From a virus: 44,722 nucleotides of DNA. The notes under the pieces were generated by a model that saw only the letters and a program-made list of their open reading frames with translations, did not search any database and was not told where the DNA came from. Below, piece by piece: positions 1,427 through 44,560 of the stretch; position 1 is the stretch's first letter; every line of letters starts with the position of its first letter. Where the stretch lies: the IMG/VR virus record IMGVR_UViG_3300045988_086091; one strand, written 5' to 3'. The position numbers were made by a program, and so were the translations under genes.

Positions 1427-1438
1427 GCAAAAAAAGAA

Positions 1439-1480
1439 GGCCCCTACCAGAACGAAAATGCTCTGGTAGGGGCCTTTTTC
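1439..1480 (+). terminator. Rho-independent terminator of int
   Basis: Perfect 13-bp stem (1439-1451 with 1462-1474), 10-nt loop, then TTTTT at 1475-1479. Confidence 0.85.
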
Positions 1481-3826: not shown

Positions 3827-4606
3827 TTACTCAGCGTCGGCTACCTGGTAGTAATCGTCGATCAGCGCCGGAGGGGCCCAATTCGCCTGCTTATTGAAGG
3901 CTCGCAGGACCTCATACTCGGTCCCGCCGTAGGTGAAGTGATCGCCCACCTGGAAGGTGTGGCCTTCATCCAGATCATCCCAATCCGGGACGTCGCCGGG
4001 CTCCGGCTCAGGTTCCGGGCCAGGTTCCGGCTCCGGCTCTTCGTAGAGCTTGTACTCGGACGGGACAAGGTGCGGGTAATGGGGCTCATAGAGCGTGACG
4101 CCCGCCTCCTTGATGGGGGTGTAGAGCTGATCGTCGATGGGGTCCCGCCGGACCGCGCCGAACGGGACGTGCTCTCCCCAAATGAAGTCCAGGTAGACGC
4201 CGGGCTCCTGGGGCTCGCTGCGAAGGGGACGGAACAGAGTGCGCCCTCCCTCGGTGCCGGGGGCCCATCCGGCCTGTGCCTGGTGCTGCACCTGGCAGAT
4301 GTAGAGCTCGCTGTCAGGGCCCACAATGGGCTCATCCTTGAAGACGGTCCCCATGCTGGCGCTCCAGACGCGGGTCCCGTCCGCGGCAGCAATCTGCTTG
4401 AGATCGTCGTCGGTGAAGTCACCGCTCACGACCTCACCGGCGCGAATGAGGTTCGCCTTGGCCCGGTTCACGTGGAGCTCAGGCAGGCCGGGCCCGCCCA
4501 GGGCCACCAGGGCCTCATGCGTTGCCAGGATGGCGGACCAGAGCTCGGAGGTGTCGTTACTCTTTTCCTGCTTCTGGTAGGCTCTGGCCTCTTCGAGATT
4601 TTTCAA
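3827..4606 (-). CDS. Tail-associated protein with two CBM5/12-like aromatic carbohydrate-binding motifs and a (PE)n linker
   Basis: TTG start behind GGGGAGGAA. C-terminal GDHFTYGGTEYEVLRAFNKQANWAPP and internal YICQVQHQAQAGWAPG. Linker EPEPEPGPEPEPEPG. Confidence 0.5.
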   Translation of the reverse strand: MKNLEEARAYQKQEKSNDTSELWSAILATHEALVALGGPGLPELHVNRAKANLIRAGEVVSGDFTDDDLKQIAAADGTRVWSASMGTVFKDEPIVGPDSELYICQVQHQAQAGWAPGTEGGRTLFRPLRSEPQEPGVYLDFIWGEHVPFGAVRRDPIDDQLYTPIKEAGVTLYEPHYPHLVPSEYKLYEEPEPEPGPEPEPEPGDVPDWDDLDEGHTFQVGDHFTYGGTEYEVLRAFNKQANWAPPALIDDYYQVADAE

Positions 4607-25092: not shown

Positions 25093-26529
25093 TTAGTCGA
25101 TGGTCCAATCGCTGATTTGCGGGTCATGCAGGGCCAGGGCCAGGGCGTCGCCCATGTCAGGGGACGACAGGCCGCGTTTCTTCATGGCCTCTTTCTTCTC
25201 AAGCTCGATCTTTCCAGCGCTGTTCACCACGTACTTCCGGTTGGAAAGCTGGCTGATCTGCTTATCGTCATACCAGAGCTTGAGGCTTTTGGTCCGCAGC
25301 GCCTCCCGGACCGCGCCCCACATGAGGCCGGTGCTGTTCTGGTAGTCGATGGGGTCATCGTCGCTGATCGTGCCGCCCTCTCCGCCAAAATGGCACTCCA
25401 CGATCTCCAGGGAGAGGGGTGGGGGCGGGTCCTCGCTGTCTGCAAAGAGGCGGTCCCGCTGGTCGTTTACTTCCTCTACGATCTGGTCCCGCAGCTCCAT
25501 GAGGCGGTCGAACACGCCGACGCCCAGGCCGTCGCAGTCAATCTTGACGTGGATTTCGGCCCACGGCTGTGCCAGAGCATACCGCTTGATGAGCCGGACA
25601 GCCTTGCCGCTCAGCTCCATGGTGTCGTTGTGGTGGTAGACCTCCGGCTGCTCCTGGAGCTTCTTGTCCAGGACAGGGGACAGCACGGAGCTGTCGTCGC
25701 CGTAGCGGGCGACGTCAATCCCGATGTCCACGCGGGCCGCACGCTCGATCTCAGGGGCCTCGGCCTCGCTGGCCCGCTCTGCCCACTCCATAGGGATGAA
25801 GCTGTCCGGCAGGGCCTTTGGGAACTCCCCAGCGACACGCACCCGGAAGACGTCGCTGTCCTCGCCAAACATATCAATGATGGTGTCGATGAACTGCTGG
25901 TCCACACGGCTGCTGTCCCGCCCGTCAATGTGCATGGCGTTGTAGAGCTCACGCGATTTGTGGTGGCTGTCATAGAAAAAGCCGGTGATCTTGGTGGGGT
26001 TCCCACACATCACCAGCTTTGCGCCCTCGGTGGACAGGGCGCCGAGGACAGGCTCGAATATCTCATCTCGGACGCCGGAGGCTTCGTCGATGATGTAGAG
26101 GACGTGCTCAGCATGGAAGCCTTGCAGGGCGTCCGGCTTGCTGGCCGTCCGGCCTACCGAGAACCACTCTTCGGGGTGGCCCCTCATGTAGACCTTTTCC
26201 TTCGTCCAGATGAGCTCCTGGGACAAGGCCGGGTTGCTTCTCAGCCATTTGGCGATCTCGGCCCACAAGATGTCCCATAGCTGGTGCTGGGTGGGAGCGG
26301 TGCAAGGTATCTTCGGATAGGGCCTGGTGGTGAGGAACCAGATCGCAAGCCAGCTCTCCACCGCGCTCTTCCCGATACCGTGGCCGCTCCGAACGGAGGT
26401 CATGGGGTACTTGGCTACGCTGTTCAAGATGGCCCGCTGATTGCTGTCCGGCTTCGCCCTGATAATGTCCTCCACGAAGTCAACCGGATTGTCCGCATAG
26501 TAGAGAATGGCGTCACTTGTCAGGTTCAT
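25093..26529 (-). CDS. terL: Terminase large subunit
   Basis: 478 aa with Walker A-like SGHGIGKS and DE motif YIIDEASG. Position after terS. Confidence 0.9.
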   Translation of the reverse strand: MNLTSDAILYYADNPVDFVEDIIRAKPDSNQRAILNSVAKYPMTSVRSGHGIGKSAVESWLAIWFLTTRPYPKIPCTAPTQHQLWDILWAEIAKWLRSNPALSQELIWTKEKVYMRGHPEEWFSVGRTASKPDALQGFHAEHVLYIIDEASGVRDEIFEPVLGALSTEGAKLVMCGNPTKITGFFYDSHHKSRELYNAMHIDGRDSSRVDQQFIDTIIDMFGEDSDVFRVRVAGEFPKALPDSFIPMEWAERASEAEAPEIERAARVDIGIDVARYGDDSSVLSPVLDKKLQEQPEVYHHNDTMELSGKAVRLIKRYALAQPWAEIHVKIDCDGLGVGVFDRLMELRDQIVEEVNDQRDRLFADSEDPPPPLSLEIVECHFGGEGGTISDDDPIDYQNSTGLMWGAVREALRTKSLKLWYDDKQISQLSNRKYVVNSAGKIELEKKEAMKKRGLSSPDMGDALALALHDPQISDWTID

Positions 26530-27028
26530 TCTGCTGCCTCCTTCGCTCCCATGCCTCGGAGATCACGTCGGCAAGGCTGCTGCTGGCGGCTTCGGCTCCG
26601 GTGTCCGGGTTGGTATCCTTTACGATCTCCGTTCGGTTTTCGCGCTCCAGCTTCGTAGCCTCCCGGATGAAGGCGACAAGGTTCTTCGGGTCGATGTCCC
26701 GCGGGTCCATCTCTTTCAGAGCTTGAAGCGCCTTCTGCTGCATTTTCATGGCAATGCTGATATGGCGGTCTGCCATCTGGCGGGCCTTCTTGACCGCCTC
26801 GGCGTGGGCCTGGCGCTGGAGGTCATTCTCGTAGGCTGCCACCCTTTCTACCCACTGGTAGTTGGCACTCCACCGGCTGATGAGCTGCCTACTTTTGGAC
26901 AACTGCTCGCTAACAAGCCGTTGACTTCGGGTTTCTCCCAAATTTAGGTAACACTGAAATGCCTCATACGCCTTTACGCTCTCGCCCTCTTGCCGCTCCC
27001 ATGGCTTCGTGTCGCTGCGTTTCGGCAT
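26513..27028 (-). CDS. terS: Terminase small subunit
   Basis: 171 aa with N-terminal HTH-like AYEAFQCYLNLGETRSQRLVSEQLSKSRQLISRWS. Overlaps the terL start. Confidence 0.75.
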   Translation of the reverse strand: MPKRSDTKPWERQEGESVKAYEAFQCYLNLGETRSQRLVSEQLSKSRQLISRWSANYQWVERVAAYENDLQRQAHAEAVKKARQMADRHISIAMKMQQKALQALKEMDPRDIDPKNLVAFIREATKLERENRTEIVKDTNPDTGAEAASSSLADVISEAWERRRQQNEPDK

Positions 27029-27060
27029 TTCGTTTCCCCTCCTTCCAGGGCCGGAAGCCG

Positions 27061-28044
27061 TTACTTAACAGCTATCCAGCCGCAGAAGTTGAGGCAGCGC
27101 CAAAACATATCCACCTTTCGGAAACCGGCGGTCCGCAGCAGGTCCGCATTCCACTCGGCCTTGAGCGGCGACAGCACATTTTCAAGGCTCCGGCGCTTCG
27201 CCGCGATCTGCTCTTCGGTGTATCCGTTTTCCCGCTTCATCTCGTAGTAGAGCTCGACCATCAGGTCGTCCATGCTCTCGCTGAGGATTTTCTCAACGAA
27301 GATCAGGGCCCCGCCAGGCTCCAGGCCGTCGTAGATCATCCGCAGCATGGACGGGCGGTAGGCCGTCGGCATGAACTGCATAGACAGGACGGACAGGACC
27401 AGGCTCGCCCCCTTCTTGAGCGGCAGGAAGCTCCAGAGGTTCCCCTCCTGGACGGACACTCTCGGCTCATCCTGGAAGCGATCTCGGCAGGCCGCGGCCA
27501 TGGCGGGGGCGTTGTCGATCAGCAGGAAGTCGTTGACCTCTCCGTACTTGGTGACGAAGGGCTCCACAGCCAGGCCGGTGCTGCACCCCACGTCTACGAT
27601 CAGGGTTTCCGGCTTGATGAACCGCTCCCCCAGCTCGTCGCCGATCTCTCCCAGCAGATCGTCAATATCGGATTGCGTGAAGCCGGTGGACAGCAGGTTT
27701 TCGCCGTCGTCGATGAGCTCCTGGAGAATGTCTGCCAGCTGGCCGTAGTCCCATTCGCCGTCCAGCTTGTTCAAGGCGATACAGAGGGCTTTTGCCTGGG
27801 CCTCCGGCATATCCACGACAACGGCGACCGTTTCCGTTTCACCGGCTGCCAGCAGCACGGAAAGCCTCTGGTGCCCGCCGATCAGGCAGTTGTCCCGGAG
27901 GTTCACCACCAGGGGCAGCACCAGGCCGTTTTCCGAGATACTGGCGTCCAGGGCTTTGTACTCCTGGTCTTTGGCCGTGAGCTGCACCCTGGGGTTGTAG
28001 GGCGCAGGCTTGATGTCGGCCAACTTAATTACTCGCGTTTCCAC
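27061..28044 (-). CDS. ParB/Srx-like N-terminal domain fused to a CmoA-like class I SAM-dependent enzyme domain
   Basis: GTG 28044 behind GGAAGGAG. N-terminal IKPAPYNPR...LIGGHQR. C-terminal VGCSTG, IDNAPAM, GLEPGGAL, KRENGYTEEQIAAKRRSLENV and FWRCLNFCGWIAVK align to E. coli CmoA as I recall it. Confidence 0.75.
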   Translation of the reverse strand: METRVIKLADIKPAPYNPRVQLTAKDQEYKALDASISENGLVLPLVVNLRDNCLIGGHQRLSVLLAAGETETVAVVVDMPEAQAKALCIALNKLDGEWDYGQLADILQELIDDGENLLSTGFTQSDIDDLLGEIGDELGERFIKPETLIVDVGCSTGLAVEPFVTKYGEVNDFLLIDNAPAMAAACRDRFQDEPRVSVQEGNLWSFLPLKKGASLVLSVLSMQFMPTAYRPSMLRMIYDGLEPGGALIFVEKILSESMDDLMVELYYEMKRENGYTEEQIAAKRRSLENVLSPLKAEWNADLLRTAGFRKVDMFWRCLNFCGWIAVK

Positions 28045-28073: not shown

Positions 28074-28104
28074 ATAAAAAAGCGGGGCGCTTTCGCGTCC
28101 CGCT
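28074..28104 (-). terminator. Rho-independent terminator after the HAD-like gene
   Basis: 10-bp stem (28081-28090 with 28095-28104, one mismatch), then UUUUUU on the - strand. Confidence 0.6.
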
Positions 28105-28121: not shown

Positions 28122-28586
28122 TTATCCAAATAGGCTGCACTGGTCGAAGGACGGAACCTTCACCATGCCCGCCGTCTTGATGAAGCGGTCATAAGGCTGA
28201 GCCTCAATTCCATACCGGGCATACATGGTCCGGGTCTTCGGGTTGCTCTCCACAGCGTAGTAGAGGCTCCCGGTGCTCCCGTGCTTCGGGAAGATGAACC
28301 GCTGGAGGGCGCTCTCCTTGAAGACTGGGGGCTCCCCGTTGATGTCGTTGAAGTACCACTCCTGGGGCTGCCAGCCAGTCTTCCGCTTGATGTTCTCCGT
28401 GGTCTGCTTCATCTGGTAGTCCGGGCGAGCCGTCACGATGATAACATAATCATCCTTGATCGCCTCGATCAGGTCGGCCCGGTATTCCTCGGCCTCCATG
28501 CGCCGGGAGAAGGGGCGAAGCATACGGGTTGTAGCTTGGTTTCCCACAAGGGTATAGTTGAGGTCTAAAAGACAAATCCGCTTCAT
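28122..28586 (-). CDS. HAD-superfamily-like hydrolase (tentative)
   Basis: N-terminal LLDLNYTL (DxDxT-like with Asn at the second Asp position) and VTARP motif. Confidence 0.4.
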   Translation of the reverse strand: MKRICLLDLNYTLVGNQATTRMLRPFSRRMEAEEYRADLIEAIKDDYVIIVTARPDYQMKQTTENIKRKTGWQPQEWYFNDINGEPPVFKESALQRFIFPKHGSTGSLYYAVESNPKTRTMYARYGIEAQPYDRFIKTAGMVKVPSFDQCSLFG

Positions 28587-28624
28587 AGTAGGTTCTCCTT
28601 TTCGGTTGTTATTTTCGCACTATT

Positions 28625-28653
28625 ATTATACCACTTTCCGGGTCGTTTGTCGC
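28625..28653 (-). promoter_or_regulatory. Sigma-70-type promoter for the HAD-like gene
   Basis: On the - strand: GCGACA, 17-nt spacer, TGGTATAAT (extended -10). The leader begins with GUGCGAAAAUA. Confidence 0.5.
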
Positions 28654-28683
28654 AGGTTTTACCAAAAAAGAGCGGATTTTTGC

Positions 28684-28718
28684 AACAAAAAATCAGCCGG
28701 AGATCGTGCTACCGGCTG
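28684..28718 (-). terminator. Rho-independent terminator
   Basis: Stem CAGCCGG/CCGGCUG (28694-28700 with 28712-28718), 11-nt loop, then AUUUUUUG on the - strand. Confidence 0.65.
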
Positions 28719-28758
28719 CTGATCGTGAAGGGAGTATTCAGGTGCAACTTCACATCAT
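28684..28758 (-). ncRNA. Candidate 75-nt small RNA or late-operon leader RNA (6S-like)
   Basis: Bounded by the promoter at 28765-28793 and the terminator at 28684-28718. First hairpin (28725-28753) exposes UUGCACC and CUCC in a 17-nt loop. No ORF. Confidence 0.4.
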
Positions 28759-28764
28759 AAAGGC

Positions 28765-28793
28765 ATTATAACACGTAAAATTGCACCAGTCTA
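28765..28793 (-). promoter_or_regulatory. Sigma-70-type promoter (candidate late promoter)
   Basis: On the - strand: TAGACT, 17-nt spacer, TGTTATAAT (extended -10). Embedded in the GTGCAA repeat array. Confidence 0.5.
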
Positions 28794-28823
28794 TTGCACG
28801 ATTTTTGCACCGATAAATTGCAC
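28781..28823 (-). repeat. Four direct GTGCAA repeats at 13/11/13-nt spacing
   Basis: TTGCAC on the + strand at 28781, 28794, 28805 and 28818. An inverted fifth copy (GGTGCAAC) lies at 28741-28748. Confidence 0.9.
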
Positions 28824-28827
28824 GCCG

Positions 28828-29337
28828 TCACTTTATGGCTTCCGCTCCGTATAGCCAGACCGCGAGCCTTTGCACAAGCCGCTTCCGGTTCCTCCAGACG
28901 GTTGTTGTGTCGCATGGAATGAGCTCCGCCACGCGCTCATCCGGGAGATCGTCAATGTACCTGCCGGTCACGGTCAGGTAGTAGTCGTCCTTCTCGATGG
29001 TGGCAAGGGCCCGCTCCATGGCCTCGATCTCGTATTCATCCGCGGCGATGGTGGCCTCCAGGTCTATCACCGCTGCCTCGAAGATTTCCTCCGGGGTAAG
29101 CCGGACCCCCGACTTGCTGAACCGGGTAATGCTCTTGCTCCGGCCTCTGGGCCCGTACTGCTTGAGCTCTTCCAGGCGCTCCTTGTCATCATCCCGCTTA
29201 TTCCGCAGGACCGGCAGCGCGTAGAGGCGGCGCTCGGTGGCCTTGAAGGCGTCCTTGGCGGTCCTCTCCGCGGATATGCGGCCATCCTCAACGGCCTGGC
29301 GGATGATGTCTTGCGTGCTCTCTTTTGGTTTGCCCAT
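28828..29337 (-). CDS. RinA/ArpU-like late transcriptional activator (sigma-70 region-4-like HTH)
   Basis: ATG 29337 behind GGGAGG. C-terminal DERVAELIPCDTTTVWRNRKRLVQRLAVWLYG. Located upstream of the terminase block. Confidence 0.6.
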   Translation of the reverse strand: MGKPKESTQDIIRQAVEDGRISAERTAKDAFKATERRLYALPVLRNKRDDDKERLEELKQYGPRGRSKSITRFSKSGVRLTPEEIFEAAVIDLEATIAADEYEIEAMERALATIEKDDYYLTVTGRYIDDLPDERVAELIPCDTTTVWRNRKRLVQRLAVWLYGAEAIK

Positions 29338-29345
29338 TGAAATGT

Positions 29346-29402
29346 CGCCTCCCGTGTGGTAAAATAGCTTTGTCACGGGCTGTCTTCCCTTCGGGGGAGG
29401 CG
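29346..29402 (-). promoter_or_regulatory. SD-sequestering structure in the leader of the late activator gene
   Basis: 8-nt CGCCUCCC (29395-29402) is complementary to the SD region GGGAGGCG (29346-29353). An alternative pairing is CCCGUG/CACGGG. Confidence 0.35.
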
Positions 29403-29412
29403 GCTTTTCTTT

Positions 29413-41352: not shown

Positions 41353-41745
41353 TCAGACGGTTGCACCCGCCATCTTTCGAGGTTCCACTCTTTTCCCGAT
41401 GAAGCAGTTGCCGCAGTAGTACCACAGGCCGTCGCGCTGGGAGAAGGTGGTATAGGTGGGCCTCCAATGCCCGGTGTCCGGGTCGTACTGGTGGCTGACC
41501 GGCTCCCCGCACTGGACCAGCGTCGCGGAGTTCGTGGCCGGAGGCAGGACGTTGAGGAAGTTCTCGACGATCTCATCCGTCACGAGGTCCCCAGGGCGGG
41601 CGGCCTTCTCGAAGTCACCGGCGCGGCGCCAGTCGTCCATCGTTATGATCTTGCGCTCCGCTGCTCCAGCCTCTTCCCTCCGGCAGTCGCAGACTTCGCA
41701 CGGGTCAAGGGCTGCTCCGCAGTAGTCGCAGAAGTAGTTGTGCAT
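41353..41745 (-). CDS. Hypothetical protein with N-terminal zinc-ribbon motif
   Basis: ATG behind GGAAAGGAGAG. Contains CDYCGAALDPCEVCDC. Confidence 0.55.
   Translation of the reverse strand: MHNYFCDYCGAALDPCEVCDCRREEAGAAERKIITMDDWRRAGDFEKAARPGDLVTDEIVENFLNVLPPATNSATLVQCGEPVSHQYDPDTGHWRPTYTTFSQRDGLWYYCGNCFIGKRVEPRKMAGATV
41356..41371 (-). promoter_or_regulatory. GUGCAA-loop hairpin, copy D
   Basis: Stem GGCGG/CCGUC with a G-U pair on the - strand only. Spans the stop codon of 41353-41745, about 25 nt upstream of ATG 41330. Confidence 0.5.
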
Positions 41746-42709: not shown

Positions 42710-42727
42710 CCGCCGTTGCACCGGCGG
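42710..42727 (-). promoter_or_regulatory. GUGCAA-loop hairpin, copy B
   Basis: Stem CCGCCG/CGGCGG, loop GUGCAA, then GGCCAAAUGCGAAAGGAG. Lies 22 nt upstream of ATG 42687. Confidence 0.6.
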
Positions 42728-43431: not shown

Positions 43432-43447
43432 GCCGGTTGCACCCGGC
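43432..43447 (-). promoter_or_regulatory. GUGCAA-loop hairpin, copy C
   Basis: Stem GCCGG/CCGGC, loop GUGCAA, then CCAGGUGCGAAAGGAG. Lies 24 nt upstream of ATG 43407. Confidence 0.6.
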
Positions 43448-43807: not shown

Positions 43808-43837
43808 TTTACCTTATTTCTTCGGCCTGATTATATT
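43808..43837 (+). promoter_or_regulatory. Candidate repressor promoter, back-to-back with the early promoter
   Basis: TTTACC, 18-nt spacer, TATATT. Its -10 overlaps the -10 of the - strand promoter. Confidence 0.3.
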
Positions 43838-43863
43838 ATACTCCTCGAACACACGGAAGTCAA
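43835..43863 (-). promoter_or_regulatory. Early lytic promoter (PR-like)
   Basis: On the - strand: TTGACT (43858-43863), 17-nt spacer, TATAAT (43835-43840). Confidence 0.6.
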
Positions 43864-43873
43864 GTATATCTTC

Positions 43874-43904
43874 AAATAATTCCAGTCGAAAACTGGAATT
43901 ATTT
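43874..43904. promoter_or_regulatory. Perfect 13-bp inverted repeat AAATAATTCCAGT-N5-ACTGGAATTATTT (operator or leader attenuator)
   Basis: Lies between the early promoter -35 and the SD of the repressor gene. On the + strand it runs into TTTTT. Confidence 0.6.
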
Positions 43905-43918
43905 TTGGAGGTTTTTCC

Positions 43919-44560
43919 ATGGATTCAAGTGAACACGCCCGTTTAATAGCGAATAGAATAACCGAGCTTTCCTCTATTCGAGGAATTTCCATAAACCGTA
44001 TGCTGTCGGTAGCAGGTCTAAACAAATCGGTCGTAGATCGAATGAAAACCGGGAATATGCCTTCTGCTGATAAGCTCGCAGCTATTGCACAAGTTCTGGA
44101 CGTCCCCACCGAGTACCTTCTCGGAAGCGGCGTGTTTGAGAAATGGGACCTGCTGCTCCGGCAGAAGCCGGCGGTTCTAAGAGCCATAGTCGGGATGATG
44201 GAGGACTTGTCAAAGGCCCTGCCCTCCGGCACAGATGACCTATCCTTCGCAAAGCTCGTCAGCATTTTCAAAGTCGATCTGGAGGAAGGCAGCGATCCAG
44301 CGGGAACCGAGATACTGGTGATCTCACCCATCCCCACCTACGACACCCCGGAACCGGGCGGCTCTGAGGCTGCCCGTCTGGAGATAGAAAAAGCGCCCGC
44401 CCCGGAAATCTCCGAGAACGGGCGGGAAATGCTGGACCTATACGAGCGCCTTTCTGAGCGCGAGCAGCTTCTCTTGCTGGGGCGGCTCCAGGAGATGGTC
44501 GCCCCCATGCTCGGCGAAGGTAAAGGGGCTCCGCAATCCTCCGCCGGGAAGGCCGTGTGA
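43919..44560 (+). CDS. XRE-family repressor (cI-like)
   Basis: N-terminal HTH LIANRITELSSIRGISINRMLSVAGLNKSVVDRMKTG. Divergent from the early operon. SD GGAGG. Confidence 0.7.
   Translation: MDSSEHARLIANRITELSSIRGISINRMLSVAGLNKSVVDRMKTGNMPSADKLAAIAQVLDVPTEYLLGSGVFEKWDLLLRQKPAVLRAIVGMMEDLSKALPSGTDDLSFAKLVSIFKVDLEEGSDPAGTEILVISPIPTYDTPEPGGSEAARLEIEKAPAPEISENGREMLDLYERLSEREQLLLLGRLQEMVAPMLGEGKGAPQSSAGKAV

Follow-up and report, generated by a model that had tools for sequence, protein, structure and literature searches.

A conserved late-control locus in an IMG/VR phage and its possible working as a Q/AlpA-like switch

How does RNA polymerase pass from the early genes of a phage into its packaging genes when intrinsic terminators stand between them? 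This question is raised by a short locus (positions 28,684 to 28,823) in the virus record IMGVR_UViG_3300045988_086091, the whole 44,722 nucleotides of which are called the window below. Every gene in these 44.7 kb is on the minus strand. A putative regulator of 169 residues is the product of the last early gene, which is preceded by the other early genes, RecU-type resolvase and gp49/66-like included; downstream of it come the genes of a ParB-methyltransferase protein and of the small and large terminase subunits (TerS and TerL), which is the position of the Ltr-superfamily regulators. Directly after the regulator gene we found four direct GTGCAA repeats (boxes), a promoter (P1), a short leader and an intrinsic terminator (T1). 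As judged from its sequence and its recurrence in relatives, this is a real, conserved and single-copy late-control module, and the regulator-boxes-promoter-leader-terminator order ahead of the first late genes is the one that an earlier note on this DNA had proposed. We consider the chances about even that the module works like the switches of lambdoid Q and Pseudomonas AlpA, in which a factor loaded at the promoter would let the polymerase read through terminators. Late-gene control sets the timing of DNA packaging and lysis in temperate phages, and in staphylococci it also times the mobilisation of pathogenicity islands. The accepted Gram-positive picture is that of a simple activator; the mechanism has been unclear since 2011, and the geometry of RinA was 'puzzling' to its authors. 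A promoter-pause-terminator module behind an Ltr-type gene offers a concrete and testable alternative.

Table 1. Features of the late-control locus and of related elements in the window (start..end in window coordinates).
Feature	Position	Strand	Basis or details
Late regulator gene, 169 aa	28828..29337	-	phrog_36 match, predicted fold, gene context
GTGCAA boxes (four), inferred regulator sites	28781..28823	-	repeats, conservation, covariation
Late promoter P1 (predicted)	28765..28793	-	promoter scan: TAGACT (28793-28788), 17-nt spacer, extended -10 TGTTATAAT (28773-28765)
Conserved initially transcribed block	28743..28759	-	Gibbs motif, hexamer counts, nhmmer profile
Hairpin 1, lineage-specific	28720..28757	-	folding of 28760-28675; 17-nt loop UUGCACCUGAAUACUCC
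Intrinsic terminator T1	28687..28718	-	CAGCCGG...CCGGCUG stem 28718-28694 (7+2 bp), A, U6 28692-28687; free energy (dG) -13.7
Extra TTGCAAAAAT box	28676..28685	-	just past T1, with about 24 nt left to the P2 -35
Second promoter P2 (predicted)	28625..28653	-	promoter scan: GCGACA, 17-nt spacer, TGgTATAAT; ahead of the 154-aa gene
154-aa gene, phrog_32036	28122..28586	-	open reading frame between P2 and T2
Intrinsic terminator T2	28074..28104	-	dG -16.6, U6; directly ahead of the ParB-methyltransferase gene
First late genes	25093..28044	-	ParB_N + methyltransferase 28044-27061, small terminase 27028-26513, large terminase 26529-25093
End-of-operon terminator, past the endolysin gene	1437..1476	-	17-bp stem, dG -34.5, CU7
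Early hairpin loops, GUGCAA	40459-40464, 41361-41366, 42716-42721, 43437-43442	-	pattern scan; also L112-L133

Boxes, promoter and regulator

The boxes (28823-28818, 28810-28805, 28799-28794 and 28786-28781) were present as the earlier note had described them, with start-to-start distances of 13, 11 and 13 nt, and the first begins 5 nt past the TGA stop codon of the regulator (28830-28828). Four same-strand copies within 50 nt never appeared in 300 first-order Markov simulations of the window (0/300), where the maximum was 2. The overlapping minus-strand promoter that had been noted, TAGACT with a 17-nt spacer and an extended -10, was recovered by our promoter scan, which returned 3 promoter-like sites in 2.5 kb against 0.9 expected. 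Relative to the predicted start of P1 (A28758), the boxes occupy about -65 to -60, -52 to -47, -41 to -36 and -28 to -23, so that box 3 abuts the -35 hexamer and box 4 lies within the -35/-10 spacer. A fifth GTGCAA (28870-28875) is found within the coding sequence of the regulator, where it encodes V-Q of a conserved RLVQR helix; relatives carry GTGCAG there, and this copy, outside the array, is probably a coding coincidence.

Direct repeats right after the stop codon of the regulator have been described for RinA/Ltr-type regulators, and in the Ltr systems such repeats were necessary and sufficient for specificity (PMC3753634). The array agrees with this placement, which bears out the suggestion that it could be a RinA-type site array. 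In addition, boxes and recognition helices covary among the related loci described below. Helices of the form (S/T)TVWRNRKRL accompany TGCAA boxes, even in L082, a relative with only 31% overall identity; those of the form TQ(L/V)WKQRxR(L/I) accompany GCGAA, GTGAA(A)C or CCCATAAA boxes, and RTVRxxKxxL is found with GTGTCC or TGCCAAAA boxes. From this covariation and the published Ltr paradigm we strongly infer that the four boxes are the binding sites of the regulator.

The regulator matched phrog_36 ('transcriptional regulator', 2.4e-14), and 419 clusters of homologous proteins were found. It had no Pfam match, the Q families included, and no match to RinA or ArpU; searches of the Protein Data Bank (PDB) with the sequence and with the family profile returned no significant match. 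NCBIfam gave weak sigma-70-ECF (extracytoplasmic function) matches only (TIGR02937), far below the cut-offs, whereas some homologs match Sigma70_ECF, Sigma70_r4_2 or DUF1492, the last with a best E value of 0.019 and in 2 of 29 homologs. The AlphaFold 2 model (mean predicted local distance difference test score, 82.5) has two long helices (residues 8-61 and 82-113), with a small helical domain at the C terminus. This domain matches region 4 structures of ECF sigma factors (2h27, 3hug and 3vep), and superposes on region 4 of sigmaE bound to -35 DNA (2h27) at a root-mean-square deviation of 1.9 Å over 56 residues. Among the viral models of BFVD, the best matches were phage proteins labelled Sigma70_r4, DUF1492 and 'transcriptional activator'; the first two labels stand for LtrA and LtrB, two branches of the Ltr superfamily (PMC3753634). 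By fold and context, the protein is predicted to belong to this superfamily. Its earlier label, 'RinA-like', holds at the level of superfamily and fold but not beyond it, given the missing RinA, ArpU and Pfam matches and its acidic character (isoelectric point 5.5, both halves acidic), unlike the 'small basic' Ltr proteins of about 130 residues.

The resemblance to sigma region 4 raises the possibility that the protein is a minimal alternative sigma factor that reads GTGCAA as a '-35' together with a -10 of its own. Besides the profile matches just mentioned, this idea can draw on the GenBank label of the homologous orf59 of Roseburia phage Shimadzu, 'RNA polymerase sigma factor', and on the whole ECF sigma factors found among the weak Foldseek matches of the model. 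However, the N-terminal part of the model is a two-helix hairpin with no sigma-2 domain; four tandem boxes are not a -35, and the distance of 20-22 nt from a box to either -10-type hexamer is unfit for the spacing of the sigma-70 family. TAGACT-17-TGnTATAAT fits sigma A, and a sigma factor would leave the terminator problem unsolved. With geometry and fold both unfit, we discarded this explanation as highly unlikely, and the annotation of orf59 is probably wrong.

The locus among related phages

A total of 103 loci were collected from IMG/VR and from species genomes; 71 distinct downstream regions were compared, and 32 diverse representatives, down to about 30% protein identity, were checked by hand. 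The related loci come mostly from Oscillospiraceae and other Clostridia; their genomes include Oscillospiraceae, Flavonifractor, Pseudoflavonifractor, Oscillibacter and Muriventricola, and distant members occur in Desulfitobacterium, Christensenellaceae, Lachnospiraceae and Selenomonas. The same order recurs in the 71 regions: two to five direct repeats, a -35-like hexamer, a spacer of 17-18 nt that holds one of the repeats, TGnTAnnnT, a short leader, a hairpin rich in GC and followed by a T-run, and a ribosome-binding site (RBS). The boxes of relatives are kept as TGCAA(T/A)n, and in the TGCAA class the distance from box 4 (TGCAAT) to the TGnTAnnnT downstream of it is 9-11 nt throughout. In the 32 representatives, the -35 hexamer scored on average 4.06 of 6 (null, 2.49) and the -10 hexamer 5.12 of 6, and the TG extension was present in 26. 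This sigma-A geometry is family-wide, clades with different boxes included.

The first 40 nt past the -10 hold a second conserved element. A Gibbs search of this region gave tGaAAAAnTGYG at 11.6 bits, compared with at most 6.8 in shuffled sequences, and the T, G, Y and G columns were occupied in 29, 27, 30 and 25 of the 32 leaders. A hexamer nAnnnT (A2/T6), starting 4-6 nt past the -10, is present in 25/32 leaders but in 29% of shuffled ones; CACAAT is its consensus, and CATGAT and TACGAT are further examples. The window has, in the same arrangement, the -10-like TATGAT (28759-28754, about -1 to +5), G28753, a purine run, and TTGCA (28747-28743) at the place of TGYG. A promoter-plus-leader profile (nhmmer) matched the window once (28800-28742, E = 1.7e-8) and each of 91 loci once, never twice, always directly after the regulator gene. 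Since the leader motif is kept in all three classes of recognition helix, it is not a specificity element; its persistence in clades with other boxes and helices also removes the general explanation that it is a fifth box, even though the leader of L105 does hold an exact direct copy of the box.

The terminator that the earlier note had placed at the downstream end of the locus was also present. A simple terminator scan missed T1, the 11-nt gap between its outer arms being larger than the 3-8-nt loop limit of the scan. About 26 of 33 diverse relatives have a strong terminator at this place, with dG values from -14 to -43, five to seven U residues and a T-run starting 40-76 nt past the -10; the stem reaches 18 bp in L035. 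T2, the second terminator of the earlier note, is likewise real and conserved: it is found in all relatives that carry P2 and have a long enough locus, including those with no strong T1. In relatives that lack P2, the start codon of the ParB-methyltransferase-type gene is about 15-40 nt past the T-run, and these leave no other place for a late promoter, so that late transcripts must cross the terminator.

A DNA similarity search of GenBank phages found nothing, and a protein search of phages returned only Roseburia phage Shimadzu (LR596903), whose orf59 is 54% identical to the regulator. After orf59, at about 43831-44004 (L138 1939-2112), this phage has GTGCAATTT, GTGCAAAAA and ATGCAATTT boxes, TTTACT-17-TGTTATAAT, TACAAT-G..., a hairpin with T6, and an RBS. 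As a cultured relative, Shimadzu provides a direct experimental route to the module.

A conserved leader between promoter and terminator could also act as an RNA in its own right, and the earlier note had considered a dedicated small RNA (sRNA). It had predicted an RNA of about 75 nt with no open reading frame; from a start near 28758 the length would be about 67-72 nt, and the only reading frame is AUG-AUG-UGA. Folding recovered the hairpin with the 17-nt loop, and the UUGCACC that it had pointed to is indeed in this loop, within GUUGCACC, which is exactly reverse-complementary to the GGUGCAAC of four early loops. According to this idea, the transcript of about 70 nt from P1 to T1 would act in trans, kissing the GGUGCAAC loops near the RBS of early genes through GUUGCACC and shutting these genes down. 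The complementarity, 8 nt, is perfect for all four early hairpins (40459, 41361, 42716 and 43437), and in Stx phages terminated PR' transcripts can moonlight as sRNAs (PMC7547250). However, the pairing is not conserved. Hairpin 1 and its UUGCACC are confined to relatives that are 98-99% identical, whereas the same early hairpins occur with leaders that lack the complement in 3300045988_104080, _104787 and _098572, in 3300029856_000349, and in 3300045988_108747 and _089355 (the L009/L011/L012 and L017/L018/L021/L022 lineages). The TTGCAC of the window aligns with the TGYG motif, and UUGCACC is, by this alignment, a local variant of the family leader motif. In addition, CUCC and GUUGCACC are in the wrong order for colinear pairing with hairpin and GGAG.

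Given the co-occurrence with non-complementary leaders, we rejected the kissing of leader and early hairpins as a conserved interaction, and the anti-Shine-Dalgarno role proposed for CUCC is unsupported. A conserved sRNA structure is likewise dismissed, given the narrow distribution of hairpin 1 and the unexceptional fold of the whole leader (z = -1.6), and so is a known RNA family: Rfam 15 gave no gathering-score match in the whole window, and relaxed E-values gave only chance-level matches in 28550-28900 (E of at least 0.09). Taken together, a stand-alone sRNA appears very unlikely.

The early hairpins are an element of their own. Their GC stems covary (CCGG/CCGG, CGCCG/CGGCG, AGCGG/CCGCU and CCCCG/CGGG) around an invariant loop of 6 nt, and after 5-20 nt comes a conserved ribosome-binding block, (A/G)UGCGAAAGGAG-CUAAC-AUG. 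The pattern scan found the element in 22 IMG/VR contigs, and it had no Rfam match. In its six letters the loop equals the DNA box of the late regulator. The hairpin might serve as an RNA operator to which a protein binds, or play a part in processing or stability. A loop-leader covariation test with the 1301-residue early protein as bait returned only contigs that are 99% identical and was uninformative.

Finally, the leader could control T1 in cis, as an attenuator in which a leader peptide or an alternative RNA structure would decide on termination with no protein on the polymerase. An AUG is found at about +4 in many leaders, and the window has AUG AUG UGA. This AUG is, however, replaced by AUA, ACG, CUG, AUC or AUU in many relatives, and on this ground a leader peptide or leaderless translation was rejected; the leader reading frames, between 2 and more than 14 codons long, have no Shine-Dalgarno sequence, and the leaders are only 35-70 nt long. 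By prediction the conserved motif stays single-stranded, we saw no antiterminator pairing that is conserved, and there is no Rfam family. We regard attenuation as scarcely probable.

Read-through or activation at P1

The arrangement of these elements leads us to favour the Q/AlpA-like switch. According to this model, the phage would be a temperate phage of Oscillospiraceae-type Clostridia, and the locus its single late-gene switch. The Ltr-superfamily protein encoded by the last early gene would bind the four boxes in and upstream of P1, a strong promoter of the host sigma A that may be constitutive. Without the regulator, polymerase coming from P1 or from the early operon would halt at T1, leaving a non-coding RNA of about 70 nt. 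The initially transcribed block (hexamer at about -1 to +5, G, A-run and TGYG) would hold the polymerase near +13 to +16, where the box-bound regulator would load onto it and make it resistant to terminators, as lambdoid Q and Pseudomonas AlpA do. The modified polymerase would then pass T1 and T2 as well as the hairpins inside the late operon of 27 kb, and halt at the long terminator past the endolysin gene.

Several features suggest that, at the terminator, transcripts started at P1 are handled differently from read-through transcripts, which is the logic of Q. The terminators are strong and stand downstream of the promoter instead of upstream; there is no alternative promoter; P1 seems able to work unaided and always has a box within its spacer; and the initially transcribed motif is conserved. 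The late region of the window, about 27 kb with the endolysin gene as its last gene, is consistent with such a switch. Scans of the minus strand from P2 to the endolysin region found weak promoter-like sites only, no strong one, and the terminators are arranged in series: T1, T2, a hairpin past the major head gene (20107-20083, dG -19), another ahead of the tape-measure gene (15197-15169, dG -24), and the 17-bp terminator that closes the operon, which is much stronger than T1 and T2. Long stems are reported to be resistant to processive antitermination (PMC10325885), and the operon-end terminator fits this report.

The alternative that has to be weighed most carefully is the classical Ltr type of activation, in which the regulator would only recruit or activate RNA polymerase at P1, T1 and T2 would be insulators against basal P1 activity and polymerase coming from the early operon, and the late genes would be expressed by leak-through of activated transcripts. 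RinA, ArpU, LtrC and Alt are described as activators that bind direct repeats, two to four in number, located just past their own genes; two of the four boxes lie upstream of the -35, as in Alt (-76 to -32); and the fold of the regulator is that of the DUF1492 and Sigma70_r4 phage regulators. A reporter of the phi13 promoter P23 that extends to +50 requires Ltr (PMC13123087). On the other hand, an insulator would be better placed upstream of the promoter, and the terminator is downstream of it in nearly all lineages. The terminators are also strong, with stems of up to 18 bp, and two of them are in series before the terminase genes of the window. P1 combines a -35, a spacer of 17-18 nt and a TG-extended -10, features that usually do without an activator, and activation would leave the conserved spacer box and the initially transcribed motif without a role. 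Considering both sides, we judge activation as the only mechanism to be credible, though less likely than not.

Several observations also count against antitermination itself. The regulator has no match in sequence or global fold to the Q proteins of lambda, 21 and 82 or to AlpA, and no Q or AlpA chain was among the top 50 Foldseek PDB matches of its model. The experimentally studied Ltr proteins are described as activators (PMC3152322, PMC3753634), and the phi13 reporter, which covers -200 to +50, is still Ltr-dependent (PMC13123087). We read the phi13 sequence (AF424783) as TTGATG-18-TATAAT, with a hairpin and T-run at about +25 to +60, then the next gene; the reporter would thus end at the hairpin stem, before the T-run, which argues that even a promoter close to the consensus is controlled at initiation. 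By analogy, this suggests that Ltr proteins can act at initiation, and a mixed role, activation plus antitermination, is credible. Four relatives, L009, L015, L017 and L024, have no strong T1; T2 is present in L009, L015 and L024 and could replace it there, but the L017 locus is too short to tell. In the leader, the A-rich block downstream also yields A2/T6 hexamers in 21 of the 32 representatives, which makes the '-10-like' call a loose one, and the window has CA instead of YG at the predicted pause. Sigma-dependent pausing, proposed here by analogy, is not established in these hosts. For this regulator family, a Q-like mechanism is argued from sequence and analogy, and it could as readily prove wrong as right.

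If the Q/AlpA-like switch is confirmed, it would extend Q-type antitermination to abundant phages of human-gut Clostridia, and it would provide compact, orthogonal pairs of protein and box, in at least three specificity classes, for the synthetic control of read-through. If the regulator is a plain activator, the locus would still define a family-wide late promoter architecture in an uncharacterised phage group.

The same reasoning can be extended to the whole Ltr superfamily (RinA, ArpU, LtrC, Alt and the sigma-4-like clade), whose members might be, at least in part, promoter-loaded processive antiterminators. We consider this unlikely, although it would explain why a functional terminator is always found between the box array and terS, how a repeat block of 59 nt confers specificity on heterologous downstream regions, and why RinA depends on sequences that lie over 155 bp upstream of the 5' end mapped for terS, a dependence for which the authors call for a 'more complex' mechanism (PMC3152322). 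The layouts of 80alpha and TP901-1 support the extension, and so does the report that, in the absence of Ltr, read-through from Pcad is stopped by the intergenic terminator (PMC3152322, PMC3753634). In 80alpha (DQ517338 16220-16407; L135 1721-1908), the rinA stop codon is followed by two TGGCAGT repeats and the promoter-like TTGATA...TATTATGAT; the leader after it measures about 70 nt and runs into a terminator of 10 bp with T6, and terS starts 42 nt past the end of the T-run. The published 5' end of terS, 24 nt upstream of the gene (PMC3152322), falls just past this terminator. In TP901-1 (AF304433; L136 3986-4563), the 577-nt region between alt and terS contains two tRNA genes predicted by ARAGORN (Lys-UUU, 4135-4209; Ala-CGC, 4289-4376), and a terminator-like hairpin (4519-4539) with TTTATTGTT lies downstream of the Alt region, 15 nt before the RBS of terS. 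Our literature search found no proposal of antitermination for Ltr proteins. If true, the extension would mean that the Q problem has been solved once more by an independent structure.

Two neighbouring regions complete the description of the locus. Downstream of T1, the window has a second promoter, P2, which the earlier note had overlooked and which makes the next gene a self-contained cassette. Among the relatives, only carriers of the 154-aa gene keep P2, as CTGTGACA-N17-TGGTATAAT, and P2, this gene and T2 are present together only in a subset of relatives; in the L024 type, a TGCAA box lies inside the P2 spacer. As far as the sequence indicates, the unit behaves like a moron, as a cassette inserted downstream of T1 and ahead of the late genes. 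The 154-residue protein starts with MKRICLLDLNYTL, reminiscent, on visual inspection, of a HAD phosphatase. Upstream of the regulator gene, a GC hairpin of 13 bp (29365-29406) has its T-run on the plus, non-coding strand and none on the coding strand; it is adjoined by a plus-strand promoter-like sequence, TTGAAA-17-TAAAAT (29337-29365). This hairpin may block antisense transcription, or serve as a pause or stability hairpin.

Comparison with known systems

Morons, the promoter-gene-terminator cassettes of phage late regions, resemble the P2/154-aa/T2 unit in its self-contained build and its patchy distribution among relatives; they differ in that some versions of the unit have a TGCAA box in the P2 spacer.

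The Ltr superfamily of Gram-positive siphophages (RinA, ArpU, LtrA/Sigma70_r4, LtrB/DUF1492, LtrC and TP901-1 Alt) shares with the present locus the regulator as last early gene ahead of the packaging genes, the sigma-region-4-like C-terminal domain (here by model), two to four cognate-specific direct repeats at the stop codon (PMC3152322, PMC3753634, PMC13123087), and a terminator between the regulator gene and terS. In 80alpha, phi13 and TP901-1 we observed the elements in this order as well. The differences are the box inside the promoter spacer, the conserved leader motif and the antitermination that we propose here.

AlpA, which controls alpBCDE in Pseudomonas aeruginosa, has its site between -35 and -10, and PalpB carries CACGAT at -1 to +5 (PMC9371919). 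The spacer binding element, this hexamer, which is near the CACAAT consensus found here (TATGAT in the window), and the intrinsic terminator just downstream are the likenesses. In contrast, AlpA is a different protein that uses a single 6-bp site and acts outside phage late operons.

The resemblance to the lambdoid Q and 21Q systems, with PR', the 6S RNA and tR' of lambda, had already been pointed out in the earlier note, and it extends to the family: most of the 32 representatives have the promoter, the conserved leader, the strong terminator and the first late gene directly after it. In both systems, the regulator gene is directly upstream of a single late promoter with a binding element inside it, the transcript opens with a -10-like hexamer, a short terminated RNA is made in lambda and predicted here, and one long late operon contains internal terminators. 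The register is also similar, since lambda PR' (J02459) reads TAAATT, 6 nt, AACGAT, G, ..., C16 G17, in parallel with the hexamer (1-6), G7, ..., Y16 and G17 of the present leaders. In 21Q, a helix-turn-helix resembling sigma region 4 binds two 6-bp direct repeats in the promoter (PMC6606751). The regulator described here is, however, unrelated to the lambdoid Q proteins in sequence and overall fold, and it belongs to a Gram-positive host; it has four boxes, reaching to -65, and the terminator is at +40 to +75 rather than at about +190. The array is a known, Ltr kind of element, and what is new is its combination with a promoter-pause-terminator anatomy like that of Q and AlpA.

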